From contig JAYUGN010000152.1 of the NCBI GenBank assembly GCA_043767605.1, forward strand, positions 1-33,834: DNA of 33,834 nucleotides, in the 5' to 3' direction. The position numbers were made by a program, and so were the translations under genes. Source of the DNA: Gammaproteobacteria bacterium (GTDB lineage: Bacteria > Pseudomonadota > Gammaproteobacteria > Nevskiales > Nevskiaceae). Under the pieces are notes generated by a model. That model did no database searches, had not been told where the DNA came from, and saw nothing but the letters and a program-made list of their open reading frames with translations. How positions within the stretch are numbered: the first letter of the stretch is position 1; each line of letters opens with the position of its first letter. Positions 3,601 through 33,717 of this stretch are shown piece by piece.

Positions 3601-3641
3601 GGGGGCTAGAATCTCATGACACAACTACAGGGGCAGGACGC

Positions 3642-16350: not shown

Positions 16351-16450
16351 CGCATCCCCAGACCTTCAGCGCCAACGACTCTATCCGACCGGGTAAGCCC
16401 CGGCAATCAAGACCTTGGGCGATGATGGGTCGTTCCACCGGGATTCCCGC

Positions 16451-17398: not shown

Positions 17399-17428
17399 TC
17401 ACGGTCTACGACTTTCGAGGTCACTCCC

Positions 17429-18253
17429 ATGGGCAAGAGCACGAAGTATGTGGCTCGAGCGCCCGATTCCAGCGGCATCGTCCAGTACACGGACGAGGAG
17501 CACCGCATCTGGGCAACGCTGTACGAGCGCCAGTACCAGGCCATCCAGGGCAAGGCCTGCGACGAATTCTTCCAGGGCATCGACCTGCTGAAGATGCCGT
17601 CCGACCGCATCCCGCAGCTGCCGGAGATCAGCAAGATCCTGAAGCGCGAGACCGGCTGGGAAGTGGCCTACGTGCCGGCGCTGATCCCGTTTTCCGAGTT
17701 CTTCAAGCTGCTGGCGAACCGCCAGTTCCCCGCCGCGACCTTCATCCGCACGCGCGATGAGCTGGACTACTTGAAGGAGCCGGACATCTTCCACGAGATC
17801 TTCGGCCACACACCGCTGCTGACCAACAAGTATTTCGCGGATTTCACCCACGCCTACGGCCAGCTGGGCCTGGCGGCCTCGAAGGAAGACCGCGTGTTCC
17901 TGGCGCGCATGTACTGGTTCACGGTGGAGTTCGGCCTGATCCAGCCGCCGGGCAAGCCGCTGCGCATCTATGGCGGTGGCATCCTGTCGTCCATCGGCGA
18001 GACGGCGTACGCCTTCAACAGCACCCCGCAGCGCAAGCGCTTCAACATCACGGATGCGCTGCGCACGCCGTATCGCATCGACATCATGCAGCCGCTGTAC
18101 TACTACCTCGAGGACCTGCGGGAGCTGTACGAGCTCGCGCGCATGGACCTGATGGGGCTGGTCGCGGAAGCCAGGCAGAAAGGCCTGCATGCGCCGCTGT
18201 TCGCGCCGAAGGCGGACAGCCCAAGCGTCACCAAGCTCGCAGGAAACATGTAA
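17429..18253 (+). CDS. phhA: phenylalanine 4-hydroxylase
   Basis: YTDEEHRIWATLYERQ, iron ligands in PDIFHEIFGHTPLL, MYWFTVEFGL, YGGGILSS. Confidence 0.92.
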   Translation: MGKSTKYVARAPDSSGIVQYTDEEHRIWATLYERQYQAIQGKACDEFFQGIDLLKMPSDRIPQLPEISKILKRETGWEVAYVPALIPFSEFFKLLANRQFPAATFIRTRDELDYLKEPDIFHEIFGHTPLLTNKYFADFTHAYGQLGLAASKEDRVFLARMYWFTVEFGLIQPPGKPLRIYGGGILSSIGETAYAFNSTPQRKRFNITDALRTPYRIDIMQPLYYYLEDLRELYELARMDLMGLVAEARQKGLHAPLFAPKADSPSVTKLAGNM

Positions 18254-19347
18254 TGCCCACGCAGCCTGCGCAGCCTACGCAGAAAGAAATGAACCCGCTC
18301 GGCAGCGACGGCTTCGAGTTCGTCGAGTTCACCGCGCCCGACAAGCAGGGCCTCTCGCAACTGCACACGCTGTTCGAGCTGCTCGGCTTCACGGCGGTGG
18401 CGAAGCACCGCAGCAAGGACGTCACGCTGTTCCGCCAGGGCGACATCAACTTCCTGGTCAACGGCACGCCGTACACGCACTTCCACCAGTTCGCGATGGC
18501 GCACGGCCCCGCGGCCTGCGCAATGGGCTGGCGAGTGAAGGATGCCGTGAAGGCTTACGAATACGCCGTGGCCCAGGGCGCGGTGCCCTTCGACGCACGC
18601 CCGGGCTACATGGAGCTGCGCCTGCCGGCCGTCTACGGCATCGGCAACAGCGTCCTTTATTTCATCGACCGCTACGGCCCGGAGCACTCGCTCTACGACG
18701 TGGACTTCCGCTGGATCGAGGGCGTGGACCGCAATCCGAAGGGCGTGGGCCTCGACACCCTCGATCACCTCACCCACAACGTGCAGCGCGGCAACATGGA
18801 TGTGTGGAGCGGCTTCTACGAGCGCATCGGCAATTTCAGGCAGATCCGCTACTTCGACATCGAGGGCAAGCAGACTGGGCTGGTCTCGCGCGCGATGACC
18901 AGCCCTTGCGGCAAGATCCGCATCCCGATCAACGAAAGCTCCGACGACAAGTCGCAGATCGAGGAATTCCTCAGGCAGTACCGTGGCGAGGGCATCCAGC
19001 ACATAGCGCTGTCGAGCAAGGACATCTACAAGACCGTGGCGGCGATGCGAGCGCGCGGCGTCACGTTCATGGACACCCCCGAGTCGTATTACGACGGCAT
19101 CGCCAGGCGCGTGAAGGGCCACCAGGAAGACGTGGCGCAGCTCAAGGCGCTGCGCGTGCTGATCGACGGCGCGCCCGAGGAAGGCATCCTGCTGCAGATC
19201 TTCACCAGCACCGTCATCGGCCCGATCTTCTTCGAGATCATCCAGCGCAAGGGCAACGAGGGTTTTGGCGAAGGCAACTTCAAGGCCCTGTTCGAGAGCA
19301 TCGAGGAAGACCAGATCCGCCGCGGCGTGCTCAAAGAGCCGGCGTAG
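18253..19347 (+). CDS. hppD: 4-hydroxyphenylpyruvate dioxygenase
   Basis: GFEFVEFTAPD, DHLTHNV, GEGIQHIALSS, LLQIFT..IGPIFFEIIQRKGNEGFGEGNFKALFESIE. TAATG overlap with the phhA stop. Confidence 0.95.
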   Translation: MPTQPAQPTQKEMNPLGSDGFEFVEFTAPDKQGLSQLHTLFELLGFTAVAKHRSKDVTLFRQGDINFLVNGTPYTHFHQFAMAHGPAACAMGWRVKDAVKAYEYAVAQGAVPFDARPGYMELRLPAVYGIGNSVLYFIDRYGPEHSLYDVDFRWIEGVDRNPKGVGLDTLDHLTHNVQRGNMDVWSGFYERIGNFRQIRYFDIEGKQTGLVSRAMTSPCGKIRIPINESSDDKSQIEEFLRQYRGEGIQHIALSSKDIYKTVAAMRARGVTFMDTPESYYDGIARRVKGHQEDVAQLKALRVLIDGAPEEGILLQIFTSTVIGPIFFEIIQRKGNEGFGEGNFKALFESIEEDQIRRGVLKEPA

Positions 19348-19378
19348 CGCCCGGGCGCGGCGAGGGATCGAGACCGAC

Positions 19379-20506
19379 ATGAAGAAGTGGATTTACCGCC
19401 CGCACATCGAGGGCACGTCCTCGCGGCAGGCCCACGCCGACCTGCCCGAGGGCACGGTCGAGCGCGAAATGAGCAAGGAGGGCTTCTTCGGCCCGGCTGC
19501 GCATTTCTACCATCCGCGCCCGCCGACGGGATGGACGAAATGGGATGGCCCGCTCAAGCCGCGCGCGTTCGACCTCGCCAAGCTCGGGTCGCACGGTGCT
19601 TCGCCGTGGCACGCCCACGACGTGCTGCACAACGCGCACGTCCGCATGCGGTACTGGGTGTGCAAGGTCTCGATGGCGCACCTCGCGCGCAATGCGGATG
19701 GCGATGAGCTCTTGTTCGTGCACGCCGGCCACGCGGAGCTGTTCTGCGATCACGGTCACCTGGCGATCGCGGCCGGGGATTACGTCGTGCTGCCGCGCGG
19801 CACGATGTGGCGCATCGAGTGCGCCGCGCCGGTGACGATGCTGCTGATCGAGGCCACCAACAGCAGCTACCAGTTGCCGGACAAGGGCCTGGTCGGCGAG
19901 CACGCGATCTTCGACCCGGCGATGCTCGATATCCCCGCCATCGACGAGGCCTTCAAGGCGCAGGCCGCGAAGCCCGGCGAGTGGCACGTGAAGATCAAGC
20001 GCCGCAACGAGATCTCGACGGTCGTGTATCCGTTCAACCCGCTCGACGCGGTGGGCTGGCATGGCAACCTGCACCCGGTGCGGATCAACGTGAAGGACAT
20101 CCGCCCGCTGATGTCGCACCGCTTCCACGTGCCGCCGAGCGCGCACACCACGTTCGTGGCGAACCGCTTCGTGGTCTGCACCTTCGCGCCGCGGCCGTTC
20201 GAGACGGACCCGGGCGCGATCAAGGTGCCGTTCTTCCACAACAACGACGACTACGACGAAGTCCTGTTCTACCACGCAGGCGATTTCTTCTCGCGCGACA
20301 ACATCCACGCCGGCATGGTCACGCTGCATCCCTGCGGCTTCACGCACGGGCCGCACCCGAAGGCGCTGAAAAAGATGCTGAAGCAGGACAAGCCCGCAAC
20401 CGACGAATACGCGGTGATGATCGATGCGCGCGATGCGCTCGAGGTGGATGCGCCTGCGACGAGCGTCGAGAACGCGGAATACCACATGAGCTGGGCCGGG
20501 AAATAA
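19379..20506 (+). CDS. hmgA: homogentisate 1,2-dioxygenase, short (~375 aa) cupin-type form
   Basis: Start at MKKWIY (19379). NADGDELLFV, DAVGWHGN, PFFHNNDDYDEVLFYH, TLHPCGFTHGPHP parallel the HGD motifs. Sits between hppD and fah. Confidence 0.8.
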   Translation: MKKWIYRPHIEGTSSRQAHADLPEGTVEREMSKEGFFGPAAHFYHPRPPTGWTKWDGPLKPRAFDLAKLGSHGASPWHAHDVLHNAHVRMRYWVCKVSMAHLARNADGDELLFVHAGHAELFCDHGHLAIAAGDYVVLPRGTMWRIECAAPVTMLLIEATNSSYQLPDKGLVGEHAIFDPAMLDIPAIDEAFKAQAAKPGEWHVKIKRRNEISTVVYPFNPLDAVGWHGNLHPVRINVKDIRPLMSHRFHVPPSAHTTFVANRFVVCTFAPRPFETDPGAIKVPFFHNNDDYDEVLFYHAGDFFSRDNIHAGMVTLHPCGFTHGPHPKALKKMLKQDKPATDEYAVMIDARDALEVDAPATSVENAEYHMSWAGK

Positions 20507-20525
20507 TCGGGGTCAGACCCCGATT
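20505..20525 (+). terminator. perfect intercistronic hairpin (attenuator or RNA-stability element candidate)
   Basis: AATCGGGGTC-A-GACCCCGATT, overlapping the hmgA TAA and followed by GATTTCATT. 13 nt before the fah ATG. Confidence 0.35.
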
Positions 20526-20538
20526 GATTTCATTACCC

Positions 20539-21555
20539 ATGAAATTTGCCACGCTGCGTGACGGAAGCCGCGACGGCCGCCTGCTGGTGGTCTCGCGCGA
20601 CCTCAAGTCCTGTGCGCCCGCGCCGGCCCGCGCGGCAACGCTGCAGAAGGCGCTCGACGACTGGGACGCCGTCGCGCCACTGCTGCAGGCGATCTCGGAC
20701 GAGATCAATGGCGGCAGGATCGCGGGCACGGCGGAGTTCAATGCACGCGACTGCCACTCGCCGCTGCCGCGGGCCTACCAGTGGGCCGATGGCTCGGCCT
20801 ACGTGAATCATGTCGAGCTGGTGCACAAGGCGCGTGGCGCCGAGATGCCGGCTTCGTTCTGGACCGACCCGCTGATGTACCAGGGCGGCTCGGATGCGTT
20901 CCTCGCGCCGTACGATCCGATCCGCATGGCGGACGAAGCCTGGGGCATCGACCTCGAGGCGGAAGTCGCCGTGGTCACCGGCGATGTGGCGATGGGCGCG
21001 AGTGCCGCGCAGGCGCTGGCGGCCGTGCGCCTCGTGATGCTCGTGAACGACGTGTCGCTGCGCAACCTGATTCCCAACGAGTTGGCCAAAGGCTTCGGCT
21101 TCTTCCAGTCCAAGCCTTCGAGCGCGTTCTCGCCGGTGGCGGTCACGCCCGACGAACTCGGCGCGGCCTGGCAGGGCGGCAAGCTGCACCGCCCGCTGCT
21201 CTCGCACCTCAACGGCAAGAAGCTCGGCGAGCCCGACGCGGCCACCGACATGACCTTCGACTTCGGAACCTTGGTCGCGCACGCCGCGAAGACCCGGCCG
21301 CTATGCGCGGGCAGCATCATCGGCAGCGGCACGGTCAGCAACCGCGGCGCCGATGGCGGCCCGGGCAAGTCCATCGAGGAGGGCGGCGCGGGCTATTCCT
21401 GCCTCGCCGAAGTCCGCACGGTGGAAACACTGCGGGATGGCAAGCCGAAGACGCCGTTCCTGAAATTCGGCGATCGCGTGCGCATCGAGATGCTGGACGC
21501 GCAGGGCGCCAGCATCTTCGGCGCGATCGAGCAGGCCGTCGAGAGATACCCGTGA
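20539..21555 (+). CDS. fahA: fumarylacetoacetate hydrolase-family enzyme (short ~338 aa type)
   Basis: Start at MKFATLRDGSRDGRLLVVSRDL (20539). FAH-fold blocks IDLEAEVAVVTG, LVMLVNDVSLR, GSGTVSN. Sits between hmgA and maiA. Confidence 0.8.
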   Translation: MKFATLRDGSRDGRLLVVSRDLKSCAPAPARAATLQKALDDWDAVAPLLQAISDEINGGRIAGTAEFNARDCHSPLPRAYQWADGSAYVNHVELVHKARGAEMPASFWTDPLMYQGGSDAFLAPYDPIRMADEAWGIDLEAEVAVVTGDVAMGASAAQALAAVRLVMLVNDVSLRNLIPNELAKGFGFFQSKPSSAFSPVAVTPDELGAAWQGGKLHRPLLSHLNGKKLGEPDAATDMTFDFGTLVAHAAKTRPLCAGSIIGSGTVSNRGADGGPGKSIEEGGAGYSCLAEVRTVETLRDGKPKTPFLKFGDRVRIEMLDAQGASIFGAIEQAVERYP

Positions 21556-21575
21556 CCGGGTCGCAAGCGACCCGG
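21556..21575 (+). other. intercistronic GC hairpin
   Basis: CCGGGTCGC-AA-GCGACCCGG immediately after the fah stop. No T-tract. Confidence 0.3.
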
Positions 21576-21604
21576 CGGTCCGTGACCCGGCGGCTCGGGG
21601 CCTG

Positions 21605-22258
21605 ATGCTCAAGCTCTATTCGTTCTGGCGCTCCTCGGCTTCGTACCGGGTGCGGATTGCGCTCGCCCTGAAGAAGCAGGAATACGAGTACATCCCGATC
21701 CACCTGGTGCAGGACGGCGGCCAGCAGTACAAGGCCGAGTTCACTGCGCTGAATCCGCAGGCGCGCGTGCCGCTGCTGGTGGACGGCGACTTTCGCATCG
21801 GCCAGTCTCTGGCGATCCTCGACTACCTCGAGGCGAAATTACCGCAGCCGGCGCTGGTACCCGCCGAGCCGCAGGCGCGGGCGCGGCTGCTGTCGTTCTG
21901 CCACGTGATCGCGTCCGACATCCAGCCGCTGCAGAACACCGGGCCGCTGAAGTACATGAGCGAGACCCTCGGCATCGACGAGCCGCGCAAGGATGCCTGG
22001 CTGCGGCACTGGATCGAGCGCGGCCTGCGCGCGCTCGAGCAGGAATGCGCCGCGCTGCCGCTCAAGGATTTCGTGTTCGGCGAGTCGGCCACCTGGGCGG
22101 ACTGCGTGCTGGTGCCACAGGTCTACAACGTCGACCGCTTCAAGTGCGACACGAGCGGATTTCCGCGGCTGTATGCGCTGGCCAGGCGCCTGAGCGTCCG
22201 ACCGGAATTCGCCGCCGGCAATCCCGACGTGCAGCCGGACGCACCCAGGAAACCCTGA
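21605..22258 (+). CDS. maiA: maleylacetoacetate isomerase (GST zeta class)
   Basis: MLKLYSFWRSSASYRVRIALALK, NPQARVPLL, IGQSLAILDYLE are the zeta-class GST/MaiA signatures. Confidence 0.9.
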   Translation: MLKLYSFWRSSASYRVRIALALKKQEYEYIPIHLVQDGGQQYKAEFTALNPQARVPLLVDGDFRIGQSLAILDYLEAKLPQPALVPAEPQARARLLSFCHVIASDIQPLQNTGPLKYMSETLGIDEPRKDAWLRHWIERGLRALEQECAALPLKDFVFGESATWADCVLVPQVYNVDRFKCDTSGFPRLYALARRLSVRPEFAAGNPDVQPDAPRKP

Positions 22259-22306: not shown

Positions 22307-22834
22307 TTAGCCCGAGGCCGGCAGGCCCGCCGCGGCGCGGATCCGGTCCAGGTCCTGCGCGTGCTTGAGCCGCAATTCTCGGCGCAGCTGCGCTTCCTCG
22401 TAGCGGTGTTTCTCAAGCGGCGTCTCGGGCATCAGTGGTGGCACGCGCCTCGGGACGCCCGGCGATTCCTGGGCCACGAAGGTGAGGTAGGCCGAGAGGA
22501 TGCGCCGGCGCTCGCCGCCGCCCACCTTCACCGCCTCGACCTTGCAGCCGATCTCCATCGAAGTCTTCCACGCTCGGTTGACCGCGGCGTTGAAGATCAG
22601 GACATCGCCGCGTCCCGCCGGGGCGATGAAGTGCATTTCATCCACGCCGACCGTGACGCAGACGCCGCCCGCATGCCGGTCGGCGCAGACCGCGGCGTAG
22701 CGGTCCATCTGCGCCATGATCAGGCCGCCGAACACGGTGTCGTTCGAGTTCAGGTCGTTCGGGAACACCATGTAGACCTGTTCCTGCACGGCCGAATACG
22801 ACACGGGCCGCGGTGAGAGGTTCGCCTCGTTCAT
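22307..22834 (-). CDS. acyl-CoA thioesterase (hotdog fold, YciA-like)
   Basis: VFPNDLNSNDTVFGGLIMAQMD and HFIAPAGRGDVL...EIGCKVE match the YciA/Acot-type hotdog pattern. Confidence 0.85.
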   Translation of the reverse strand: MNEANLSPRPVSYSAVQEQVYMVFPNDLNSNDTVFGGLIMAQMDRYAAVCADRHAGGVCVTVGVDEMHFIAPAGRGDVLIFNAAVNRAWKTSMEIGCKVEAVKVGGGERRRILSAYLTFVAQESPGVPRRVPPLMPETPLEKHRYEEAQLRRELRLKHAQDLDRIRAAAGLPASG

Positions 22835-22864: not shown

Positions 22865-24244
22865 ATGAAGCCAAATGTTTTCGGGATGCTCCTGCTGGGC
22901 CTCGCGCTGCTCGCCGCTGCCGACCCTGCGCCGCAGTTCGTGGACTTGTTCAAGGCGGCGACCGCTGCGCACGAGGCGAAGGATTACCCGGCGATGGAGC
23001 TGCGCCTGCGCGAGGCGCTGAAAGTGCGGCCCGGGCACCCGGCGGCGCTGTACAACCTCGCCGCGGCACTGGCGCTGCGCGGCGAGCGCAAGGATGCGAT
23101 GGCGACGCTGGAGAAACTGGTGGCGATGGGCCTGTCCTACGACCCTGCTGGCGATGCCGACTTCGCGGGGCTCAAGGGCTCCGAGCGTTTCACGGACATC
23201 GGCAAGGATTTCGCGCGCAACGCCAAGCCCGCCGGGCGCGTGCGCACCGTGCTGCAGATCAGCGACCGGCCGACCTACATCCCGGAAGGGCTCGCCTTCG
23301 ACGAGGACACCGACACCTATTACCTCGGCAGCGCGCGGCAGCGGCGCATCCAGAAGATCAAGCGCGCCGGGCGCGACGAAAACTTTGTCCTGCCGGGCGA
23401 AGGCTCGCTGTGGGCGGCGCTCGGCATGGTCACCGACCCGGACCGGCACCTGCTGTGGGTGGCATCGGCGGCGATTCCCGAGATGGAAGTCGGCGATCCG
23501 AAGGACCTCGGCCGCTCGGCCGTGCTGGCCTATGACCTGCGCAGCGGCGACCGGCGCCGGCGCTACGTGCTCGAGGACGGCGCGGCGGCGCACCAGCTCG
23601 GCGACCTCGCGCTCGCGCGCAACGGCACGATCTATGCGACCGACAACAAGGCCGGCATCCTGTATTCGCTCGACACCAGCAGCGGCAAGTTCGAGGCCCT
23701 GACCCAGCCGGGCGAGCTGGTCTCGCCGCAGGGCGTCGTGCAGGGCCGCAACCGCAACTTCCTGTTCATCGCCGACTATGTGCAAGGCCTGTTCCGCTAC
23801 GACATCAACAGCCGCACGCTGCGGAAACTCGACGTTGGCAGCGACATCTGCGTCTACGGCATCGACGGCCTGTACCGTTATCACGACGACCTCGTCGCCG
23901 TGCAGAACGGTGTGCGGCCGCATCGCGTCGTGCAGCTGGAGATCGACGATGGCGGCCGGCGCGTGCGCCACGCGCGCGTACTGGCCTCGGGCGCAACCTA
24001 TTTCGACGAACCCACGCTCGGCGTCGTGATCGGCGACCACTTCGACTTCGTCGCCAACAGTCACTGGAGCCGCTTCAACGACAAGCACGAGCTGCCGGGC
24101 AACCTCAGCGGGCCGCTGGTGCTGCGTGTCGAGCTGGAAGACCTGCGCCGCAATGGCAACGACCGCGATCCGCTGAACGAAAACCCGTCGCAACCCGGTG
24201 GCGCGCTGCCCAGCCTGCCTTGCATCGGACCCCTGTGCCGCTGA
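22865..24244 (+). CDS. secreted TPR plus beta-propeller (SMP-30/gluconolactonase/NHL-like) protein, function unknown
   Basis: Signal MKPNVFGMLLLGLALLAAA. TPR-like helices (HPAALYNLAAALALRGERKDAMATLEKLV). Repeated blade-like segments (PEGLAFD, GMVTDP, GTIYATD, PQGVV, GIDGLY). Confidence 0.6.
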   Translation: MKPNVFGMLLLGLALLAAADPAPQFVDLFKAATAAHEAKDYPAMELRLREALKVRPGHPAALYNLAAALALRGERKDAMATLEKLVAMGLSYDPAGDADFAGLKGSERFTDIGKDFARNAKPAGRVRTVLQISDRPTYIPEGLAFDEDTDTYYLGSARQRRIQKIKRAGRDENFVLPGEGSLWAALGMVTDPDRHLLWVASAAIPEMEVGDPKDLGRSAVLAYDLRSGDRRRRYVLEDGAAAHQLGDLALARNGTIYATDNKAGILYSLDTSSGKFEALTQPGELVSPQGVVQGRNRNFLFIADYVQGLFRYDINSRTLRKLDVGSDICVYGIDGLYRYHDDLVAVQNGVRPHRVVQLEIDDGGRRVRHARVLASGATYFDEPTLGVVIGDHFDFVANSHWSRFNDKHELPGNLSGPLVLRVELEDLRRNGNDRDPLNENPSQPGGALPSLPCIGPLCR

Positions 24245-24937: not shown

Positions 24938-24967
24938 GCGGGGGGCCCGCCGCAACGGGCCCGCCGC
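24938..24967. terminator. GC-rich hairpin between convergent genes (bidirectional terminator candidate)
   Basis: GCGGGGGGCCCG-CCGCAA-CGGGCCCGCCGC, a 12-bp stem with one mismatch. No U-tract. Confidence 0.35.
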
Positions 24968-27900
24968 TATTGCTCGGTGCGGTTCCAGAACGTGCGGAAT
25001 CGCGTGGCGCCCGTGCCACTGCGGCATTGCAGATCGGAGGCGAGCACGCACTTGACCGAGCCGCCAACGCTCGCGGAATCGGCGACGTTGACGTACACCG
25101 GCGAGGCCGGGATGCCGGCGCTGGCCAGCGGCCGCGCGCGGTCGGCGGCGGAGTTGGCGCCGCCCGTGCTGCTCGCGCCGTCCGCGGTGTTGTAGTTGAA
25201 CGACGCCGTGCCATCGGCTTGCGACACGGTGTAGAACAGGCCGCTGCCTTCCGATGACGTGCAGCTCGTCGTGTTGTGCATGTCCGGTGGCAGGTAGCTC
25301 GTGAAGTACACGCGGTTGGCCGCGGTCAGCGCCGAGCTCAGGATTTTTTCGCCGGGGGTTGCCGTCAGCCGTACGCGCCAGCCCGCGCCGAGGTCCGGCG
25401 TGCAGCCACTGGTTTGCAGGCAGTCGCTGGTGACATCGGTGAGCTGGGTGGGCGTGAGCGGCGTGATGCCGGCCGCGCTGCCGACCGCGGTGCGCCGATC
25501 CTTGATCACGTAAAGACCATTTTCGGTGAACGTCTCCACGCCGGCGGCGCTGCGCGCGCGGCCGTAGTCGAGCGGGTCTTCGCGATCGCCGCTGCCGATC
25601 ACGATCGCGTCGTACGGGCCGGCCGCATCGCGCGCCAGCACCAGGTCCGGTTCGTGGAAGAAGCGGCGGTCGTCGCCCTTGGCGGACGCACCGGCAGCGT
25701 GGCGCCCGAGCTGCGCGACCAGCGTCAGGGTCCAGTCGCGCGGATCGCCCTTGAGATCCGCCCGCCACAGGTTGCCGCCCGTGTCGCCGACCAGGATGCG
25801 GTCGGCGTTGCCGTCGCCGTCGGTGTCCACCACGGTCAGCGCGGACGGGATGCTGTCCTTGAGTTCGACGTGGGTGTAGACGCGCGCGTCGCTGGCCGCG
25901 CCGGTGCTGGCGCCCTTCACGGCCTTCCAGATCAACGCGCCGGTCTCGGCGTCCACCACGTAGATCGCATTGCCCATGCTGTCGTCGGTGCCCATCGAGC
26001 CGGTCGAGGTCTGGCTGTTCTGGAACAGGCCGAGCAGAGTGCCGGTGTAGTCCTTGTTGGGATCGTAGCCGCCGCCGAAGAACACGGCGGGGCGCGTGGT
26101 GACGCCGCTCGCGCCGCTTCCGGTGCGCACGCGCGCGACGCGCGGCTGCGAGAAGGTGTAGCCCAGCTCCGGGAAGTCGATGGTGTCGTTGCCGATGCGC
26201 CACTGGAATTTCGGCACGGTGGGGTCGGTCACGTCCAGCGCGTACTGCACGCGGCCGCCGCGACGCATGCCGGCGTACAGCCAGGCGCGGTCGCCGTCGC
26301 CCGACTGGATCGTGCCGTCGCCATTCACGTCGCGCATATAGGCGGTGGGCACGCCGTCGAAGCCAACCACGCGCGCCGGTGTCGGCGCGTTCAGCGCGAG
26401 CTTCTGCTGGATCGCGAGCATCTCGAACGGCATGAACGCCCAGGCCTCGCCGCCGTTCTCGGCGCCGCCGGCGGTGGTGTTGCGGATGAAGTGCAGGAAG
26501 CCGTCATTGGTGTTGACCGCGATGTAGATGGCGGGATTGGTCTTGCTGTAGCCACCCAGCGCGCCGTAGTTGATCGGCAGCGGCCGGCTGTGCATCGGGT
26601 CGCCCATCAGCCACGGCCGCACCGCGCTGGGCGTCGCGAAGTCGTAGCCGCGAATGTAAGTCAGCAGCGCCAGCGCTTCGGGCGTGCTTCCGACACCGAG
26701 CGACCCCTGCACGGTTACTGCCGTCGTCAGGTCGGCGTTCAACGCTTGCAGTTCGGCGTGACCGCTGGCGTAAAGGTAGAGCTGCCGTGCGCCCGCGGCC
26801 GAGTTCGACATTCCCGGCGTGCCGGGAATCCTCGATCCCGCGCCGCCGAGTGTCACGGCGCGGCCATCGCGGCCGGCGATCACGCCGTTGGCCGGATCTG
26901 CCGCGATCGTGCTGCCGTCGGACCAGAAGGTGAGCGCGTCCTGGCGGATGCGCCCGTCCGAGGAAGTGGCCTCGCTGCCGTTCGCATCCACCATCCGCAC
27001 TTCGCGGCCGGGCGTGCAGCCGGTGTCGCCGGCGGCGCAAGTCGTGTCGAAGGCCTTGAGCTTCAGCTTCTTCACATTGCCCGGCCAGAACGGCTTCAGG
27101 CCGAGGTCCGGCTGGAACAGCGTGAGGTAGACGCTGTCCAGCGTCTCGGCGCGATTGAAGGCGTTGGTCGCCAGCGAGGGTGCGACGAAGGTCGTGCTGA
27201 CGCTGACCACCTGCCCGAGCAGGCTGCGCAGCGAATCCACCAGCGCAGCCGGATCCTCGCCCAGCGGCAGCGGCAGCGGCCGCGTCGTGCCGCCGCTGGA
27301 AGCGTACTCGGTGGTGGTGGCGTCGAAGGTCGCCGGGCTGCTGTTGCGCGGCGTCGGCGGCACGTAGAAATAGGACGTGACGTTCTGCGTGCCCTCGAGC
27401 AGCGGCACCGTGCCGAATGCGCTGGGCGAGCGCGCGAGGTCGGCGTCGTGCAGCCAGCCGACCACGGTTGCGAGCTTGTTGCTGGCGCCCGCCAGGCTGA
27501 TGCCGTCCATGCCGCCGCCGGCCAGCCCCGCGGTGATCGCGGCGTCGGAGTCGCCGTCGTTCGAGGTGACGTCCATCAGGAAATTGATGGTGTAGAGGCG
27601 GCTGCACCGCAGCGACACGGTCAGCGGCGAAAGGTACTTGCCGAGCGCTGGCACCTCTGCCGTCACGTCCCAGCTTGCCGCCGTGTTGTCGAGGTCGAGG
27701 TTGAGCGTGTTGTTGGTGCCGTAGTCGGTGTAACCGTTGTGGCCGTTGTAGAGCCCCTGACCGGTGAGGTAGCGGAAGTACTCGAAGAACAGCTCCTTGC
27801 CCTGCCACGGCGCCGAGCCGGCCGCGGGCAGGTTGTCGAGCTTGGCCAGGAACGGCGAGAGGTTCGCGCCCGGCGCGAGGCTCGAGGGCGTGGTCAACAG

Positions 27901-28374
27901 GTTCACCAGCTGGTCCACCGGCTTGATGCCGGCGGCGACGTACGCGCCGTTGCTGCAGCGCTGCAGGCCGAGCGGCAGCAACGGCCGAGGGCCGGCGCAG
28001 GCCGCGTCCTGCCCGTGGTTCAGCATCAGGCCGACCTGCACGCCGCTGGTCTGCAGCAGCGCCATGCGCATCGACAACCGGATCGCGTCGAAGTACGTGA
28101 ACGAGGCCAGTGCGGTCGGCAGCACGCAGCTGGGGCAGTTGTCGCGGAAATATTTCGCGGGCGCGCACATCGCCGCGCCGGCGCCGACCAGGGTGCAGCC
28201 GGCGTACACGGCCTGCTGCGCCTTGCGGGCATCGACGCTGAACATCACCAGCGGCTGCGACAGCGCCGGCGGCACGCGGTTGGCGTAGATGTCGGAGTCG
28301 GCCGCGCGCACCGTGCCCGCGGTGGCTCCCGCCAGCACGGCTCCGGCGAGCGCCACGGCACTGCGGGTGTTCAT
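24967..28374 (-). CDS. pilY1: type IV pilus tip-associated adhesin / assembly protein PilY1 (PilC family)
   Basis: Start MNTRSAVALAGAVLAGATAGTVRA at 28374, overlapping the pilX stop as ATGA. 1135 aa. C-terminal propeller with EF-hand-like loop DTDGDGNAD (25801-25827) followed by ILVGDTGGNLWRADL. Confidence 0.9.
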   Translation of the reverse strand: MNTRSAVALAGAVLAGATAGTVRAADSDIYANRVPPALSQPLVMFSVDARKAQQAVYAGCTLVGAGAAMCAPAKYFRDNCPSCVLPTALASFTYFDAIRLSMRMALLQTSGVQVGLMLNHGQDAACAGPRPLLPLGLQRCSNGAYVAAGIKPVDQLVNLLTTPSSLAPGANLSPFLAKLDNLPAAGSAPWQGKELFFEYFRYLTGQGLYNGHNGYTDYGTNNTLNLDLDNTAASWDVTAEVPALGKYLSPLTVSLRCSRLYTINFLMDVTSNDGDSDAAITAGLAGGGMDGISLAGASNKLATVVGWLHDADLARSPSAFGTVPLLEGTQNVTSYFYVPPTPRNSSPATFDATTTEYASSGGTTRPLPLPLGEDPAALVDSLRSLLGQVVSVSTTFVAPSLATNAFNRAETLDSVYLTLFQPDLGLKPFWPGNVKKLKLKAFDTTCAAGDTGCTPGREVRMVDANGSEATSSDGRIRQDALTFWSDGSTIAADPANGVIAGRDGRAVTLGGAGSRIPGTPGMSNSAAGARQLYLYASGHAELQALNADLTTAVTVQGSLGVGSTPEALALLTYIRGYDFATPSAVRPWLMGDPMHSRPLPINYGALGGYSKTNPAIYIAVNTNDGFLHFIRNTTAGGAENGGEAWAFMPFEMLAIQQKLALNAPTPARVVGFDGVPTAYMRDVNGDGTIQSGDGDRAWLYAGMRRGGRVQYALDVTDPTVPKFQWRIGNDTIDFPELGYTFSQPRVARVRTGSGASGVTTRPAVFFGGGYDPNKDYTGTLLGLFQNSQTSTGSMGTDDSMGNAIYVVDAETGALIWKAVKGASTGAASDARVYTHVELKDSIPSALTVVDTDGDGNADRILVGDTGGNLWRADLKGDPRDWTLTLVAQLGRHAAGASAKGDDRRFFHEPDLVLARDAAGPYDAIVIGSGDREDPLDYGRARSAAGVETFTENGLYVIKDRRTAVGSAAGITPLTPTQLTDVTSDCLQTSGCTPDLGAGWRVRLTATPGEKILSSALTAANRVYFTSYLPPDMHNTTSCTSSEGSGLFYTVSQADGTASFNYNTADGASSTGGANSAADRARPLASAGIPASPVYVNVADSASVGGSVKCVLASDLQCRSGTGATRFRTFWNRTEQ

Positions 28375-28862
28375 TCGTTGGCCGGAACGATGACCGCGAC
28401 ACCTTCCTGCAATTGGTCGCGGCCCCAGCCGTAGCTGGTGGCGTCGTAGCGCGATTCGACCTGCATTTGCGCCGCGGAGAACTTCACCGCGCTGTAGCCG
28501 GTGCCGCGCGGCGGCGGAGCGAACTCCGGCGCCAGGCGGCGCACCTTCACCGAGATGCCGGCGCTGCCCATGCCGACGGGCGTGGAGACGGTGTTGCCAA
28601 AGCAGTCGGCGTCCGTCACTCCGGGCAGGCAGTTGGCGCGATCCACCGGGCCGGTCACGGCCGTGTTGGCGGGCACGGCCAGGGTCATGTCGATCAGCGA
28701 TTGCGCGTTCTGGAAGGCGTCGATCCGGAGTTCCTCGCCGACGGCGTTGCGCATCGCGCCGACGGAGAGGCGGAAGCCCGACAGCGCCAGCGCCGTCAGC
28801 AGCACGAGCATGATCAGCGAGACGAACAGCGCCACGCCGCCCTCGTGCCGGCGCCGGTTCAC
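28371..28862 (-). CDS. pilX: type IV pilus minor pilin PilX
   Basis: GTG start overlapping the pilW stop (GTGA). N-terminal hydrophobic helix GGVALFVSLIMLVLLTALALSGF of PilX_N type. Sits between pilW and pilY1. Confidence 0.75.
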   Translation of the reverse strand: MNRRRHEGGVALFVSLIMLVLLTALALSGFRLSVGAMRNAVGEELRIDAFQNAQSLIDMTLAVPANTAVTGPVDRANCLPGVTDADCFGNTVSTPVGMGSAGISVKVRRLAPEFAPPPRGTGYSAVKFSAAQMQVESRYDATSYGWGRDQLQEGVAVIVPANE

Positions 28863-29851
28863 TGGTACCCCAGTCCCTGCAGCGAGCGCGTATTGCGCAG
28901 CACCACTTCGCTGGCCAGGGTCTTGCGGTAGTAGTGGCTGTTATCGCCGGACGGCTGCAAGGCCGGCGAATTGCCGACCCAGTAGGTCTTGTCGTTGCGG
29001 TAGCCGGGGTCCGGCGTCGCTGAGCGCACGAGCAGGTAGACCCGCACCGCCACCGCGCGCGCAAGGTCGGCGGCGGCCGGCGCCTGCGAGAAGAAGTTCG
29101 CGACGCCGTCACCGTCGCTGTCCACGCCCACTTCGAGCTGCAGGTTCTCCACGCCCTGCGCGAGGCATTCCTTCGCGAAGAACGGCGGACTGCCGGCGCG
29201 CAGCACCATCCGGCACAACGACGGCACCCGCGGTGACTCCGTGGGCGAGACGGTGTACGGCTGCACGAAATAGAGGCGCGGGCGGTATTCGTAGTCCTGG
29301 TAAGGCTGTTCCATCGCCGGTGCGGTGCCGCCACCGAGGTAGAGCGCGCCCAGGCCCTGGTGGGTGCGCAGGTAAGTGCGGCCGATCACCAGGCCTGAGG
29401 CATCGGTGTCGCTGGCGTCTGCGCGGCCGCGCACCCGCTTGATCGCCACGATGTCGGCACCGGCCTGCACGTCTGCCGCGGGCAGGCAGGGATGGAGCAG
29501 GTTCGCGCTGGCCGCGGCCGGGTTGTCGTCCAGCGCCAGCGAGCTGAGGTCCTGCACCGCCCAGCCGGTCGGGCCACAGTCGTTGCCCACGGTCAGGGAG
29601 CCCGGCCGCTCGATCAGCGCGCCGTCGCGCACCCGCGACCAGAAGCCGGCCATCTCCAGGTCCTGCGTGAGCTGCGTCATCGCGAACGCGAGCTCGTCGT
29701 GCATGCGCGACAGTTTCTCGTCCTGCCGGTAGTTGCTGGACCCGCCGAGGAATACGTTGCCGACCGCCGCCACGCTCACGATGCCGAGCGAACTGGCGAT
29801 CATCAGTTCGATCAGCGAAAACCCCCGCTGCCGGACGCGCGCGCGGCTCAT
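28859..29851 (-). CDS. pilW: type IV pilus minor pilin PilW
   Basis: Prepilin cleavage/methylation motif QRGFSLIELMIASSLG. 330 aa. ATGA overlap with pilV. Confidence 0.85.
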   Translation of the reverse strand: MSRARVRQRGFSLIELMIASSLGIVSVAAVGNVFLGGSSNYRQDEKLSRMHDELAFAMTQLTQDLEMAGFWSRVRDGALIERPGSLTVGNDCGPTGWAVQDLSSLALDDNPAAASANLLHPCLPAADVQAGADIVAIKRVRGRADASDTDASGLVIGRTYLRTHQGLGALYLGGGTAPAMEQPYQDYEYRPRLYFVQPYTVSPTESPRVPSLCRMVLRAGSPPFFAKECLAQGVENLQLEVGVDSDGDGVANFFSQAPAAADLARAVAVRVYLLVRSATPDPGYRNDKTYWVGNSPALQPSGDNSHYYRKTLASEVVLRNTRSLQGLGYQ

Positions 29852-30561
29852 CGTGCGGCCACCGGCACGATCCAGGCCTGCACCGTCACCGTGCGGCGGT
29901 ACTGGTCCTGGGTGCCGTACAGGCGGGTTCCGTCGCTATAGACGGCGCTGCGGCCGCAGGCGTCGGCGGCGTTGTCCGGCAGCGCCTGGTCGCCGCGGAA
30001 CGCGATGCTCAGCGTATACATCCCGGCCGCTCCGGCGCCGGTCGCCGGCGCCGCCAGGCAGGCGGTGGCCAGCGTCAGGCCGCCGACCTTCTTGCCGGTG
30101 GGGCCCGTGCCGGTGCCGCCGAGCCGCTCGGTGGCGCCATCCAGCAACTGCTCCCATTGCCACAGGTCGAAGGCGGCCATTTGTTCGGCGGTGCAGGACG
30201 ACGTCGCGTCGCTGCAATTGGGCGAAGGAGCGGTCTCGCCCAGGCGGCCGCCCCCGAGCGCAGTCCCGGCGCCGGCGACATAGGCCCGCAGGGCCGCCGG
30301 TACGCTGTTGGCCCGCACCCGTTCGAGCAGGCTGTAGGCCAGCTGCGAGGCTTGCAGGCGCTGGCTGGCGTCGCGCAGGTTGCGCTTGGATACGACTTCA
30401 AGGGAAGTCAGCGACAACACGCCAACCGAGGTCACCATCAGCGAGGCCAGGACCTCGATCAGCGACACGCCGCGCTGCGCGCGCGACCGCTCGCGCGACG
30501 CTGTCGCCGCCGGGCTCTCATCGCCGGGCGGGAATGCCGGCGGCGGATTTGATTTGTGCAT
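29848..30561 (-). CDS. pilV: type IV pilus minor pilin PilV (unusually long leader)
   Basis: Prepilin motif QRGVSLIEVLASLMV, preceded by a 31-aa Pro-rich leader (MHKSNPPPAFPPGDESPAATASRERSRAQRG). No in-frame alternative start closer to the cleavage site. Confidence 0.8.
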   Translation of the reverse strand: MHKSNPPPAFPPGDESPAATASRERSRAQRGVSLIEVLASLMVTSVGVLSLTSLEVVSKRNLRDASQRLQASQLAYSLLERVRANSVPAALRAYVAGAGTALGGGRLGETAPSPNCSDATSSCTAEQMAAFDLWQWEQLLDGATERLGGTGTGPTGKKVGGLTLATACLAAPATGAGAAGMYTLSIAFRGDQALPDNAADACGRSAVYSDGTRLYGTQDQYRRTVTVQAWIVPVAAR

Positions 30562-30620
30562 GACAGTCCCCTGACGCGAGGACTATCTTGTAGCGGGGGC
30601 CGGGTTGCCCCCATAGGACC

Positions 30621-30650
30621 TTGGTCGTAAAAATACTTAAGTCGTATAAA
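30621..30650 (+). promoter_or_regulatory. sigma70-type promoter candidate for the 30685 gene, inside an AT-rich divergent control region
   Basis: TTGGTC (30621-30626), 18-nt spacer, TATAAA (30645-30650), 34 nt upstream of the ATG. Overlaps direct repeats GTCGTA at 30624 and 30641. Confidence 0.3.
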
Positions 30651-30684
30651 GTTCTAGCCGCCGCTCAAGCGTGACTGGACAAGA

Positions 30685-32376
30685 ATGACCTCAGTGAATG
30701 CCCGGTTGATGGCCGCAGCGCTGCTCAGCCTGGCCTGCGCCGGCGCTGCAGCGCAGGCACCGCCATTCTGGGCACGGCCGCGCGCCCCGGCGCCGGCGGA
30801 CTGCGTGACAACGGCCACCCCCAAGGCTTCCGGGGGCAGCACCCTGCAGTCCGGGCTGCTCGGCGCCGCCGCGCTGGCGCTGTTCGGGTGGATGGTCCGC
30901 GTCCAGCTGAAGAAGTCCGCGGCCGCCCGGGCCGCGATTCCCAGGGCTGAGTCCAGCGCGTCCCCGGCTACGCCCGCACCGCGCCACGACGACCTGGCGA
31001 TGAATCCGCTGTCGGCCATCGGCGGTGCGGGCATCGAGATGCACGACCCGGAAAAGCTCGGCGCCAACGAAGCCGTGCGGTTCTACGCCGAGGTGGCCGC
31101 TTCGCTGGTAACCGCGCTCCAGCGCGAGCCGGAGCGCGAGGACCTGCAGCTGAAGCTGCTCGAGATCTACCACGCCGCCGGCCGCGTGCACGAATTTGTC
31201 CAGCTCGCGCGGGTGTTCTTCGACCAGCATTTCGGGACGCGCGGCCGTCACTGGCCGGCGGTCTGGGAGATGGGCGCGCGCCTGGCGCCCGACCACCCGC
31301 TGTTCCGCGAAGCCCGGCCGGCAGCGGAAGGCGCGCGCGGCGGCAGGCGCGGCGCCTCGCCGTTCCGCCGCTTCAACGAAGTCAACCTGGACCAGGGCCG
31401 GATCTACGGCGCGCAGAAGGACATGATCGCGCAGGTCGAGCGCGTGCGCGGCGATCCGGCGTTCCACACCCTGGTGCGCGCGGTGCTGGTCAAGAGCGCG
31501 CGACGGCCGTCGCCGGTCACGGCGCTGCCGGTGCTGGCCGGCGCTGGCCGGGGTGGGCAGCTGTACCTGAAGCGCGAGGACCAGCGCCGCGGGCACGACG
31601 ACGTGCGCATCAACGCGCTGTGCCAGACGCTGCTCGCGCGCCAGCTCGGCCGCACCATCGTCGTCACCGCCACGCGCAGCGGACTGCACGGCCAGGCGGT
31701 GGCGTCCGCCGCGCAGCGTTTCGGCCTGGAATGCACGATCTACATTTCGGAGTCGGCGATGATCCACCACTACACCGACGTGCTGCGGATGCGCGAGCTC
31801 GGCGCCTTCGTGCGGCCGGTCAAGGTCGGCGACTCGCGTTATGCCGATCCGCGCCAGTTCGCGCTCGACGATGCCTGGCTCAACGACCCCGAGCACGTGA
31901 TGTACATCAGCGACCTGGACGGCGGCCCCGATCCGTATCCGGCGATCGTGCGCGAGTTCCAGATGACGGTGGGCCGCGAGGCGGCAGAGCAGCTGGCGCA
32001 GCTCGGCGCGCCGCCGGCGGCGGTGGTGGCGGGCGCCGCGGATGGCTACCAGGGCCTGGGGCTGCTGCACGCATTTGAAAGCGATCCGGCGGTCAGCCTG
32101 CACTATGTCGGCCCGAAGACCGTGCCGGGCTTCGAGCGGGAGCGCCACCGGCTCAAGGAAATGAAGCGGATGCAGTGGGTCCCCGGAGACCACGCCGAGG
32201 GGCTGCTCGTGCTCGAGCAACTGTATCCCGAACAGATCCAGATGTCCCTCGACACCGCCTGCACGCTCGCCGTCGCGCGCAAGCTCGCCGCCGGCCTTTC
32301 GCCCTCGCAATCCGTGCTGGCCCTGGTGCCGAGCCGCGAGGACACCGGGTCGCGCGAATTCGCGCGCAAGATGTGA
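30685..32376 (+). CDS. membrane-anchored FimV-like helical-repeat / TrpB-like (PLP fold, catalytic residues lost) fusion protein
   Basis: 563 aa. Signal-like N-terminus plus one TM helix (LLGAAALALFGWMV-RVQLKK). Helical repeat LQLKLLEIYHAAGRVHEFVQLARVFF...WPAVWEMGARLAPDHPLF. C-terminal region collinear with TrpB (LYLKREDQRRGHDDVRINAL, GPDPYPAIVREFQMTVGRE), but the Lys is Arg and GGGSNA is AADGYQ. Its stop overlaps the fimT GTG. Confidence 0.8.
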   Translation: MTSVNARLMAAALLSLACAGAAAQAPPFWARPRAPAPADCVTTATPKASGGSTLQSGLLGAAALALFGWMVRVQLKKSAAARAAIPRAESSASPATPAPRHDDLAMNPLSAIGGAGIEMHDPEKLGANEAVRFYAEVAASLVTALQREPEREDLQLKLLEIYHAAGRVHEFVQLARVFFDQHFGTRGRHWPAVWEMGARLAPDHPLFREARPAAEGARGGRRGASPFRRFNEVNLDQGRIYGAQKDMIAQVERVRGDPAFHTLVRAVLVKSARRPSPVTALPVLAGAGRGGQLYLKREDQRRGHDDVRINALCQTLLARQLGRTIVVTATRSGLHGQAVASAAQRFGLECTIYISESAMIHHYTDVLRMRELGAFVRPVKVGDSRYADPRQFALDDAWLNDPEHVMYISDLDGGPDPYPAIVREFQMTVGREAAEQLAQLGAPPAAVVAGAADGYQGLGLLHAFESDPAVSLHYVGPKTVPGFERERHRLKEMKRMQWVPGDHAEGLLVLEQLYPEQIQMSLDTACTLAVARKLAAGLSPSQSVLALVPSREDTGSREFARKM

Positions 32377-32924
32377 TCCACCGTGGCCGGGGCTTCACCA
32401 CGAGCGAGCTCATGATAGTGCTCGCGATTTCGGCCATCCTGCTGTCGCTCGCGCTGCCGGGCTTCCGCACGCTGGCGCTCAACACCCGGCGCACGGTCAC
32501 CGTCGATACGCTGGTGCTGAGTTTTTCGCTGGCGCGCGCCGAAGCGCAGAAGCGCGGCAGCGCCGTGACGGTCTGCGGGCTCAACAGCAGCGGCGCCGGC
32601 TGCGCGAACGGCGCCGACTGGCGCTACGGCTGGATGGTGTTCGTCGATACCAACGCCAACGGCGCCTGGGACGCCGGCGAGCCCGCGCCGCTGCAGAAAT
32701 ACATGACCGACGATCCGGCCCGGCGCCGCGTGACGGCCAACACTTATGGAATGACGGCCGGCTTCGTGCTGCTGCAGCCGTTCAACCAGGGCGCCACGGC
32801 GGCCACCGTCACCGTCTGCGACAGCCGCGGCGCCAGCGCGGCGCGCGCGGTCACGGTCAGCGGCACCGGCCGCGCCGCGGGGTCCGACAAGGACCTGAAC
32901 TACGCTGCGCTGACCTGCCCATGA
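32373..32924 (+). CDS. fimT: type IV pilus minor pilin FimT/GspH-like
   Basis: GTG at 32373 gives a 7-aa leader, then G|FTTSELMIVLAISAILLSLALPGF with Glu at +5. GspH/FimT-like core GWMVFVDTNANGAWDAGE. Confidence 0.8.
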   Translation: MIHRGRGFTTSELMIVLAISAILLSLALPGFRTLALNTRRTVTVDTLVLSFSLARAEAQKRGSAVTVCGLNSSGAGCANGADWRYGWMVFVDTNANGAWDAGEPAPLQKYMTDDPARRRVTANTYGMTAGFVLLQPFNQGATAATVTVCDSRGASAARAVTVSGTGRAAGSDKDLNYAALTCP

Positions 32925-33403
32925 CGAACGAGCCGCGCGAGCGCCGGCGATCCGGGTTCACGCTCACCGAGCTGCTGGTGGTGCTGACGGTGGTCGGCAT
33001 CCTGGCCGCCGTGGCGCTGCCCTCGTACCGCGACGCCACGCTGCGCGGGCGCCGCACGGTGGCCAAGACCTTCCTGACCGAGGCCGCCGGGCGCGAAGAG
33101 GGATGGTTCAGCGACCGCAAGGGCTACACCGCATCGCTCGGTGACGACGGCCTGCGCTACGCGCCGGGCAATGCGGTCACGAGTTTCTACGTGGATGTGA
33201 ACGGCAAGGCCGGGGTTTCCGCCAGCGCGGCGCTGTATTCGATTTCGCTGGCCACGATCAGCACCGGCGGCATCGTGACGTCGTGGACGCTCACCGCCGC
33301 GCCGCAGAACGCCCAGGCCCGGGACGCCTGCGGCAGCCTGATCCTCGCCCAGGACGGCACCCGGAGCGCCAGCAGCGGACGCAGCGACTGCTGGTCGCGC
33401 TAA
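32921..33403 (+). CDS. pilE: type IV pilin PilE-like
   Basis: RSGFTLTELLVVLTVVGILAAVALPSYRD (class III signal, Glu +5). C-terminal Cys pair (DACGS...SDCWSR). ATGA overlap with fimT. Confidence 0.85.
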   Translation: MTNEPRERRRSGFTLTELLVVLTVVGILAAVALPSYRDATLRGRRTVAKTFLTEAAGREEGWFSDRKGYTASLGDDGLRYAPGNAVTSFYVDVNGKAGVSASAALYSISLATISTGGIVTSWTLTAAPQNAQARDACGSLILAQDGTRSASSGRSDCWSR

Positions 33404-33416
33404 GATCGCCGCGCGT

Positions 33417-33717
33417 GGGCCTGTAGCTCAGATGGTTAGAGCAGGGGACTCATCACAAAGGTGCGTTCGCGCCGGAAGGCGCGAAATGAACGGGATGAAT
33501 TCAGGGAAACCGTCACGGGTGATGCCGCCGGCAATCCTGAGCCAAGCCGGGAGTGCACTTCCGGAAGGTGCAGAGACTACCTGAGGGCTTAAGCGCCCTT
33601 AATGACAGGCTCGAGCGTCCCGCGCCCTGATCGGGCGGTGAGATAGTCCACTCCCCTCGGAAACGAGGGGTTCAGTGAATCCTTTGGTCGCTGGTTCGAA
33701 TCCAGCCGGGCCCACCA
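33417..33717 (+). tRNA. tRNA with anticodon CAU, probably tRNA-Ile2 (lysidine type), interrupted by an intron
   Basis: Exon 1 (33417-33453) is GGGCCTGTAGCTCAGATGGTTAGAGCAGGGGACTCAT. Exon 2 (33678-33717) is AATCCTTTGGTCGCTGGTTCGAATCCAGCCGGGCCCACCA. Joined, they form a canonical 77-nt cloverleaf with encoded CCA and a G1-C72 pair, so not an initiator. Variable loop and T-arm closely resemble E. coli ileX as I recall it. Confidence 0.85.
33454..33677 (+). ncRNA. group I (IC3-like) self-splicing intron in the anticodon loop
   Basis: 224 nt inserted directly 3' of CAT. GGTG near the 5' end can pair with exon ..TCAT (P1 with a G-U pair). Hairpins TTCGCGCC-GGAA-GGCGCGAA and CCCCTCG-GAAA-CGAGGGG have GNRA loops. 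Core-like strings GAGCCAAG and GGTGCAGAGACTA. Ends in G. No ORF. Exact splice boundaries could shift by 1-2 nt. Confidence 0.75.

Follow-up and report, generated by a model that had tools for sequence, protein, structure and literature searches.

The window analysed here is a stretch of 33,834 nucleotides (GC 67.6%) from a gammaproteobacterium of the family Nevskiaceae (order Nevskiales; contig JAYUGN010000152.1), in which a cluster of minor-pilin genes of the type IV pilus is found. Embedded in this cluster is a 563-codon open reading frame (ORF), called the target below. Its predicted product joins a short periplasmic stub and a single transmembrane (TM) helix to a tetratricopeptide repeat (TPR) module of the type found in FimV, and then to a domain with the fold of the tryptophan synthase beta subunit, TrpB, that has lost its catalytic residues (Table 1). 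The target is the first cistron of a same-strand target-fimT-pilE unit and is divergent from pilVWXY1. Its TGA (32374-32376) overlaps the GTG start of fimT (32373) by 4 bp, as GTGA, and this GTG opens the prepilin leader VIHRGRG, followed by FTTSEL. A previous reading made from the letters of this DNA, the sequence-only reading, had reported the overlap and the 123-bp gap to pilV, and the coordinates of both were confirmed.

Table 1. Parts of the target gene and neighbouring pilin genes, in positions of the window
Feature	Position	Strand	Basis or remark
Whole target gene, 563 aa + TGA	30685-32376	+	predicted signal peptide, periplasmic stub, TM helix, FimV-type TPR module and dead TrpB-like domain
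Predicted cleavable signal peptide, residues 1-25, ...AAAQA cut before PP	30685-30759	+	sequence reading: n-region Arg, hydrophobic core, A-x-A
Short predicted periplasmic stub, residues 26-53	30760-30843	+	PPFWARP(R/K/H)(A/P/Q) motif at 30760-30780; conserved Cys40 at 30802-30804
Predicted single TM helix, residues ~54-72	30844-30900	+	sequence reading; AlphaFold2 helix at 53-83; RVQLKK after it, cytoplasmic side
FimV-type TPR module, residues 126-210, motif PEREDLQLKLLEIY	31060-31314	+	BLASTP, hhalign, AlphaFold2
TrpB-fold domain, predicted catalytically dead, residues ~222-561	31348-32367	+	Pfam, NCBIfam, structure matches, alignments, AlphaFold2
FimT/FimU-like minor pilin, GspH fold	32373-32924	+	Pfam GspH 5.2e-15 and N_methyl
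PilE-like pilin (ComP_DUS/N_methyl), third gene of the target-fimT-pilE unit	32921-33403	+	Pfam
Divergent intergenic region pilV/target, 123 bp	30562-30684	.	gap to the pilV ATG (30561, minus strand)
PilV-like minor pilin	29848-30561	-	Pfam Tt1218-like and N_methyl
PilW	28859-29851	-	Pfam PilW 7.7e-18 and N_methyl
PilX	28371-28862	-	Pfam PilX_N
PilY1, start MNTRSAVALAG...	24967-28368	-	Pfam T4P_PilY1 8e-13

The GC content at third codon positions (GC3) of the target is 0.90, which is typical of coding sequence. The ratio of nonsynonymous to synonymous substitution rates (dN/dS) over the whole gene is 0.33-0.43 against relatives that are 71-80% identical. Calculated by part against the 80% and 71% identical relatives, it amounts to 0.11-0.24 in the TPR module, 0.29-0.35 in the TrpB-like domain and ~0.6-1.3 in the linker. 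As the values for both cytoplasmic modules are well below 1, both are under purifying selection.

The sequence-only reading had described a signal-like N-terminus, a TM helix and the motif RVQLKK, and this description is confirmed by the sequence and by the helix of the AlphaFold2 model. A hydrophobic N-terminus equivalent to that of the target is found in 13 of 13 homologs of the stub form. The signal peptide is followed in this branch by an invariant PPFWARP motif and then by one or two Cys ahead of the TM helix. All 13 stub-form sequences carry the motif (P0003 being truncated N-terminally), which was found in none of the other family members screened. Reading 'SLAC' (Cys18) as a lipoprotein signal was ruled out, since homologs do not conserve Cys18. 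The basic residues directly after the TM helix place the C-terminal bulk of the protein in the cytoplasm, following the positive-inside rule. The target is thus predicted to be a type I membrane protein with a signal peptide, a stub of ~30 aa and one TM helix. The AlphaFold2 model, computed from an alignment of 14 sequences, has a mean predicted local distance difference test (pLDDT) score of 73; the four TPR helices score ~85 and residues 237-550 ~88.

At the poles of bacterial cells, FimV/HubP proteins act as organisers of pili, flagella and signalling; their cytoplasmic wiring is only partly known. Residues ~126-210 of the target are 35% identical (BLASTP, 4e-14) to the cytoplasmic, membrane-proximal TPR region of P0030, a bona fide FimV in which FimV_N, LysM and TPR_19 are all present. 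Profile-profile comparison of the target's family with an alignment of seven FimVs gave an hhalign match of 99.2% (E 2.6e-19, 87 columns). The Pfam model TPR_19 remained sub-threshold on the target protein (E 0.02); because the Pfam TPR models do not reach their threshold, the assignment to FimV was made from BLASTP and hhalign. These alignments indicate that the middle region of the target is homologous to the FimV membrane-proximal cytoplasmic TPR module. The FimV-like call of the sequence-only reading was therefore well founded, and relatives of the target carry a true FimV_N ahead of the same unit.

The target shares a signal peptide, a single TM helix, type I topology and an association with the type IV pilus with FimV of Pseudomonas aeruginosa, HubP of Vibrio and TspA of Neisseria. 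In FimV/HubP, as in the target, the homologous TPR module lies ~80 residues past the TM helix and has the motif P-x-R-x-DL-x-LKLLE[IV]Y...W...MG...P...LF. FimV as described in reference work has LysM, one TM helix, three TPRs and the TIGR03504 C-terminal domain, and it binds FimL and PilG via its C-terminal TPR (10.1101/116954). Unlike FimV/HubP, the target has no FimV_N, LysM or acidic repeat region; the dead TrpB fold stands in place of parts that include those reported to bind FimL/PilG (10.1101/116954), and the gene lies in a minor-pilin cluster, not at asd-fimV-truA. A Pfam scan of the target gave only PALP and the weak TPR_19 match, and neither the Ig-like FimV_N domain (PF25800) nor LysM was found; the periplasmic part measures merely ~30 aa. 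TIGR03504, which combines TPR and a capping helix, is absent among the best 25 of 26 NCBIfam matches (E<=1). These 25 are all PALP-type enzymes, and the 26th would have E>0.16. Since FimV_N and LysM are lacking and TIGR03504 is not among the matches listed, the target is, judged by its domains, derived from FimV yet not a strict member of the FimV family.

About 20 residues separate the TPR module from the TrpB fold. The Pfam family PALP (PF00291) matches the target with 2.2e-21 and 76.9 bits, against a gathering cutoff of 35, and such a match speaks for homology alone, not for activity. The equivalog model TIGR00263 for trpB gives 137 bits and has a cutoff of 392.45. Among solved structures the best match is the TrpB chain 5ey5_B (1e-38). 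A Foldseek search with the AlphaFold2 model returned TrpB chains as all of its top matches, with 5e-23 for 5dvz_B and a TM-score of 0.85 for apo E. coli TrpB (2dh6). The C-terminal part is accordingly modelled as a full two-domain TrpB fold, that of fold-type II pyridoxal-phosphate (PLP) enzymes. Its alignment with TrpB (TIGR00263; 5ey5_B, 2dh6, 5dvz) is collinear, with 26-37% identity, starting near TrpB residue 16 and running through to the C-terminus. The collinearity that the sequence-only reading had seen over the last ~335 aa is thus found in the alignments and by Foldseek.

The catalytic columns were read from HMMER, MAFFT and hmmalign alignments with genuine TrpBs, which are in agreement. 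HTGAHK corresponds to RGHDDV, so that H86 is replaced by D306 and the Schiff-base lysine K87 by V307 (31603-31605). AETGAGQHG corresponds to TATRSGLHG, with E109 replaced by A329 (31669-31671), and the PLP phosphate loop GGGSN has become A452-D453-G454-Y455-Q456 (within 32035-32061). The sequence-only reading was right that all three catalytic signatures are lost, that no Lys stands in the K87 register and that the phosphate loop is destroyed. Its two substitutions were each one residue off: the Arg that it placed in the K87 column is in every alignment the following residue, R308 (31606-31608), and the Thr that it gave for the Glu of AETGAGQHG likewise lies beside the true column. Its account of the domain also lacked a deletion of ~45 residues (TrpB roughly 255-305) after residue ~478, between 'HYVGPKTVPG' and 'FERERH'; the corresponding TrpB stretch is near the active site. 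The catalytic-motif losses are common to all 13 close homologs. Across the family the K87 column holds V, A, D, Q or M, a variability that fits a position out of use. We conclude from these replacements that the TrpB-like domain is enzymatically dead. It further differs from TrpB in being joined to a membrane anchor and a TPR module, and no trpA is adjacent.

To collect relatives, 1.84 billion representatives were searched exhaustively with a profile, and the matches were then examined locally by motif and HMM. The family was defined by a FimV-type TPR immediately N-terminal to a TrpB fold without HTGAHK, AETGAGQHG and GGGSN, and comprises ~75-80 clusters at 50% identity. Three kinds of member were found. 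Long forms of 750-990 aa have FimV_N and PALP in 10 of 10 tested, as well as in the protein of a Nevskiaceae metagenome-assembled genome (MAG; L002). Membrane-stub or anchor-only forms, the target among them, have 510-640 aa. The soluble forms, one of which comes from the cultured Spectribacter hydrogenoxidans W335 (L013), measure ~450-500 aa. The TM counts of the family are rough, as the threshold of the hydropathy screen missed the short TM helix of the target itself. Both the FimV_N-TM-TPR-dead TrpB proteins (e.g. TXH05706.1, from a Nevskiaceae MAG) and the soluble TPR-dead TrpB proteins (e.g. L013) are 25-40% identical to the target in the TPR and dead-TrpB unit; the two modules meet at the same junction, and the same catalytic motifs are lost. 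They differ from it in having a full FimV periplasmic domain or none, no PPFWARP stub and no pilin neighbours. A profile search with a 49-sequence alignment brought no protein beyond the first homolog set. A metagenome scan by FimV TPR pattern gave one new member among the matches listed (L029, a 2.3-kb contig that offers no context), the others being canonical FimV loci and fimV...trpB loci. The target is thus not isolated, but one branch of a sizeable unnamed family. No family of curated Pfam/NCBIfam covers the TPR and dead-TrpB architecture, and full-text literature searches on the architecture and its context found no description. The sequence-only reading had called this architecture undescribed; this holds for the literature found, while members are already present in public databases under generic enzyme names such as 'pyridoxal-phosphate dependent enzyme' (e.g. 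TXH05706.1) and 'tryptophan synthase beta subunit'.

The genomic neighbourhood of canonical fimV genes suggests how such a protein could have formed. At least 24 independent loci (L003, L005, L011, L030-L051) have a FimV TPR motif 2.4-4.9 kb upstream of, and on the same strand as, a genuine trpB. Halospina denitrificans has the gene order asd-fimV-truA-trpF-trpB-trpA-accD. The loci L003-L012 had come up as candidate dead-TrpB relatives and were rejected: their HTGAHK is intact, hence they hold genuine trpB genes, retrieved because fimV is just upstream. The part of TrpB that the dead domain covers begins at the N-terminus. Two short FimVs of 586-598 aa (L016, 6257-8017, where FimV_N was confirmed, and L017, 8492-10267) end directly after the membrane-proximal TPR, which is where the dead TrpB attaches in the family, so that the junction coincides with a natural module boundary. 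The dead domain scores 125-135 bits against fimV-linked gammaproteobacterial TrpBs and at most 130 bits against the 56 best genuine TrpB representatives; the former thus appear to be its closest genuine TrpBs, with slightly higher scores and by a small margin. From the proximity of fimV and trpB, the N-terminal coverage of TrpB, the boundary in short FimVs and the TrpB scores, we infer that the simplest origin of the family is a fusion within a copy of the fimV-truA-trpF-trpB neighbourhood. In the pilin-linked branch, the FimV periplasmic domain would later have been cut down to the stub.

Lineages with the PPFWARP stub (39-80% identity) lie beside minor pilins in 8 of 8 cases with informative context. 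The P0002 and P0004 loci have the same gene order as the window, and L024 and L028 share its order of target homolog, fimT and pilE. In the more divergent P0006/7, P0008, P0011, P0012 and P0151 (39-42% identity), the gene is divergent from fimU-pilV-pilW-pilX-pilY1 and has alr-dnaB on its other side. The far flank thus differs between pilin-linked lineages, being alr-dnaB in some and fimT-pilE-tRNA in others. As both flanks are rearranged and the adjacency to the pilins is kept, the linkage survives rearrangement. The target and the pilins next to it have diverged to a similar degree (40% versus 42-53%). The stub itself is restricted to the pilin-linked branch, and P0013, which is without the motif, is not pilin-linked.

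The GTGA overlap with fimT is also present in L024 and L028. There, the GTG-started fimT leaders read VIRGHG followed by FSTTEL and VKRHASRG followed by FTMTEL (L024 8226-8265; L028 2381-2426). The recorded gene calls start at a later ATG and lose the fimT prepilin motif; most likely, the fimT-like genes of both loci begin at the GTG that overlaps the upstream TGA. The divergent region contains the conserved blocks ACCTTGGTC(G/T)TAA and GACAAGAATG (window 30562-30684; L024 6409-6531; L028 477-668), which are kept across lineages of 70-80% protein identity and may represent shared promoter or regulator sites. A promoter scan gave one weak sigma-70-like match at 30560-30589 and a terminator scan between the target and fimT-pilE gave none convincing; neither result is evidence either way.

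Taken together, these data lead us to favour, on balance, a reading in which the target, derived from FimV and devoid of enzyme activity, serves the minor-pilin/PilY1 module of the type IV pilus as a dedicated inner-membrane adaptor. The TPR and pseudo-TrpB unit would form a docking platform at the inner membrane and substitute for the acidic region and C-terminal TPR of FimV. TrpB is a beta2 dimer, from which the platform is expected to be probably dimeric as well. The periplasmic stub would connect this platform with either the priming complex of minor pilins and PilY1 or the alignment subcomplex, and the target could help to assemble, position or feed back on the minor-pilin/PilY1 complex. 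The sequence-only reading had likewise proposed a TrpB-fold pseudoenzyme on a FimV-like module as an accessory of the pilus; our data support this proposal, its pilus part through synteny. We also consider, more tentatively, a wider version in which TPR plus dead TrpB is an unrecognised output module of FimV hubs, born as a fimV-trpB fusion. In the PPFWARP branch this module would have become a dedicated pilus adaptor, coupling the state of the periplasmic minor pilins and PilY1 to the cytoplasm via a pseudoenzyme dimer.

Several observations weigh against a dedicated pilus adaptor. The survey of neighbourhoods placed homologs of 39-80% identity beside fimT/fimU-pilV-pilW-pilX-pilY1, as the sequence-only reading would have it, but other branches of the family are unlinked where examined. 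The anchor-only P0013, the long forms of L002 and L109 and the soluble forms of L013 and L110 are not near pilus genes; the neighbours of the long and soluble members are folD and a sugar transferase, PDH genes with TetR and GT5, zapE and glpD, or EamA and an acyl-CoA dehydrogenase. Because the long, soluble and anchor-only members examined lie away from pilus genes, the function of the TPR and dead-TrpB core is not intrinsically pilus-specific. The pilin-linked branch is known from metagenome assemblies alone, is not among the GTDB species representatives retrieved by the pattern scan, and its examples probably all come from one order, Nevskiales. The pilus role is thus argued from synteny within what is probably a single order, and dimerisation and periplasmic contacts are our conjecture. 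The TPR module alone, searched by sequence against solved structures, matched nothing under E 0.7, and no protein that binds this TPR in FimV is known to us. The AlphaFold2 model is of low confidence in the stub and linkers.

These points would suit a general polar or cell-envelope hub, a FimV paralogue unrelated to minor pilins whose position next to them is inherited gene order, since long and soluble members occur in unrelated gene contexts and the pilin-linked examples may all stem from one order. We find this explanation unlikely: the linkage outlasts the rearrangement of both flanks and the relocation of fimT/pilE, relatives share the stop/start overlap with fimT, the divergence of the target is close to that of the adjacent pilins, and the periplasmic PPFWARP stub is confined to the pilin-linked branch. 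A somewhat poorer prospect is a ligand sensor, in which a remodelled TrpB pocket would bind a small molecule (Ser, Trp, indole or another) without PLP, change the output of the TPR and tune the pilus. Such a sensor would account for the purifying selection on the TrpB-like domain, for the conservation of the whole fold, COMM-domain region included, and for pocket-lining positions that are family-invariant, e.g. T330, G333, H335, G336, D453 and G454. Little of a binding site is left, however, in a domain that has Asp and Tyr in its phosphate loop, Asp for His86 and ~45 active-site-near residues deleted; the residue in the Lys87 column varies across the family (V, A, D, Q, M), and no conserved ligand-related genes were seen near the examined loci.

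Automatic annotations imply an active PLP-dependent TrpB-like enzyme, and the PALP match above threshold goes along with them. This is very improbable for a protein that has no Schiff-base Lys, has lost Glu109, His86 and GGGSN, carries a large internal deletion and scores 137 against the 392 of TIGR00263. The degenerate enzyme motifs might also be taken for those of a decaying pseudogene or a chance fusion ORF, an idea to which we give practically no credit: conservation already refutes it, as at least 13 close homologs and ~75-80 representative clusters keep an intact frame, both domains have a dN/dS well below 1, GC3 is 0.90 and the model is confidently folded. We thus retain the FimV-derived adaptor of the minor-pilin/PilY1 module as our preferred reading.

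If this reading is correct, the target is a new accessory protein for the minor-pilin/PilY1 priming system, and its relatives form a new family of PLP fold-type II pseudoenzymes. The membrane-proximal TPR of FimV is reused here with a completely different output domain, a dead enzyme of amino-acid biosynthesis, and one branch has settled in a minor-pilin operon. The fimV-truA-trpF-trpB neighbourhood would clearly exemplify how chromosomal neighbours can fuse into a new protein. For annotation, members labelled 'tryptophan synthase beta subunit' or 'PLP-dependent enzyme' cannot, by their motifs, be either.

Two further observations concern TPR proteins and relatives of the target. The window encodes a 459-aa protein with a marginal TPR_19 match (22865-24244, plus strand), whose gene has a 4HBT thioesterase gene on one side and the 3' end of pilY1 on the other; in the adjoining segment 24245-24966 no convincing gene was found, and the pilin-unlinked P0013 also adjoins genes for TPR proteins (L023). 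The window (2578-4043 and 22307-22834) has MscL, a Fer2/FAD/NAD oxidoreductase, a 4HBT thioesterase and TetR in common with L109 (13947-17738), the Nevskiaceae MAG locus of the long form P0154. Their order and distance differ, and these common genes may be a remnant of one chromosomal region.

Elsewhere in the window, 16415-22258 holds a phenylalanine/tyrosine catabolism cluster unrelated to the target, with an alpha/beta hydrolase, a biopterin-dependent hydroxylase, HPPD, a homogentisate dioxygenase-like protein, fumarylacetoacetase and GST. Judged by the best named relatives of this HPPD gene, the window belongs to an uncultured gammaproteobacterium of the Nevskiales. On the minus strand at 9027-11536, two overlapping ORFs (9027-10910 and 10301-11536) both match Phenol_MetA_deg and are probably tandem genes for outer-membrane channels with true starts shorter than the mechanical ORFs. 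Finally, 14 bp past the pilE-like gene lies a tRNA(CAU) gene (33417-33717, plus strand) whose anticodon loop is split by a group I intron (Rfam RF00028, 33441-33670, E 1.9e-15, with 65 bits where the gathering threshold is 50). The intron extends from about 33454 to about 33677, and ARAGORN misses the gene because of this interruption. We take the intron to be of the known kind typified by that of the Azoarcus tRNA-Ile(CAU), found here in a gammaproteobacterium of the Nevskiales.

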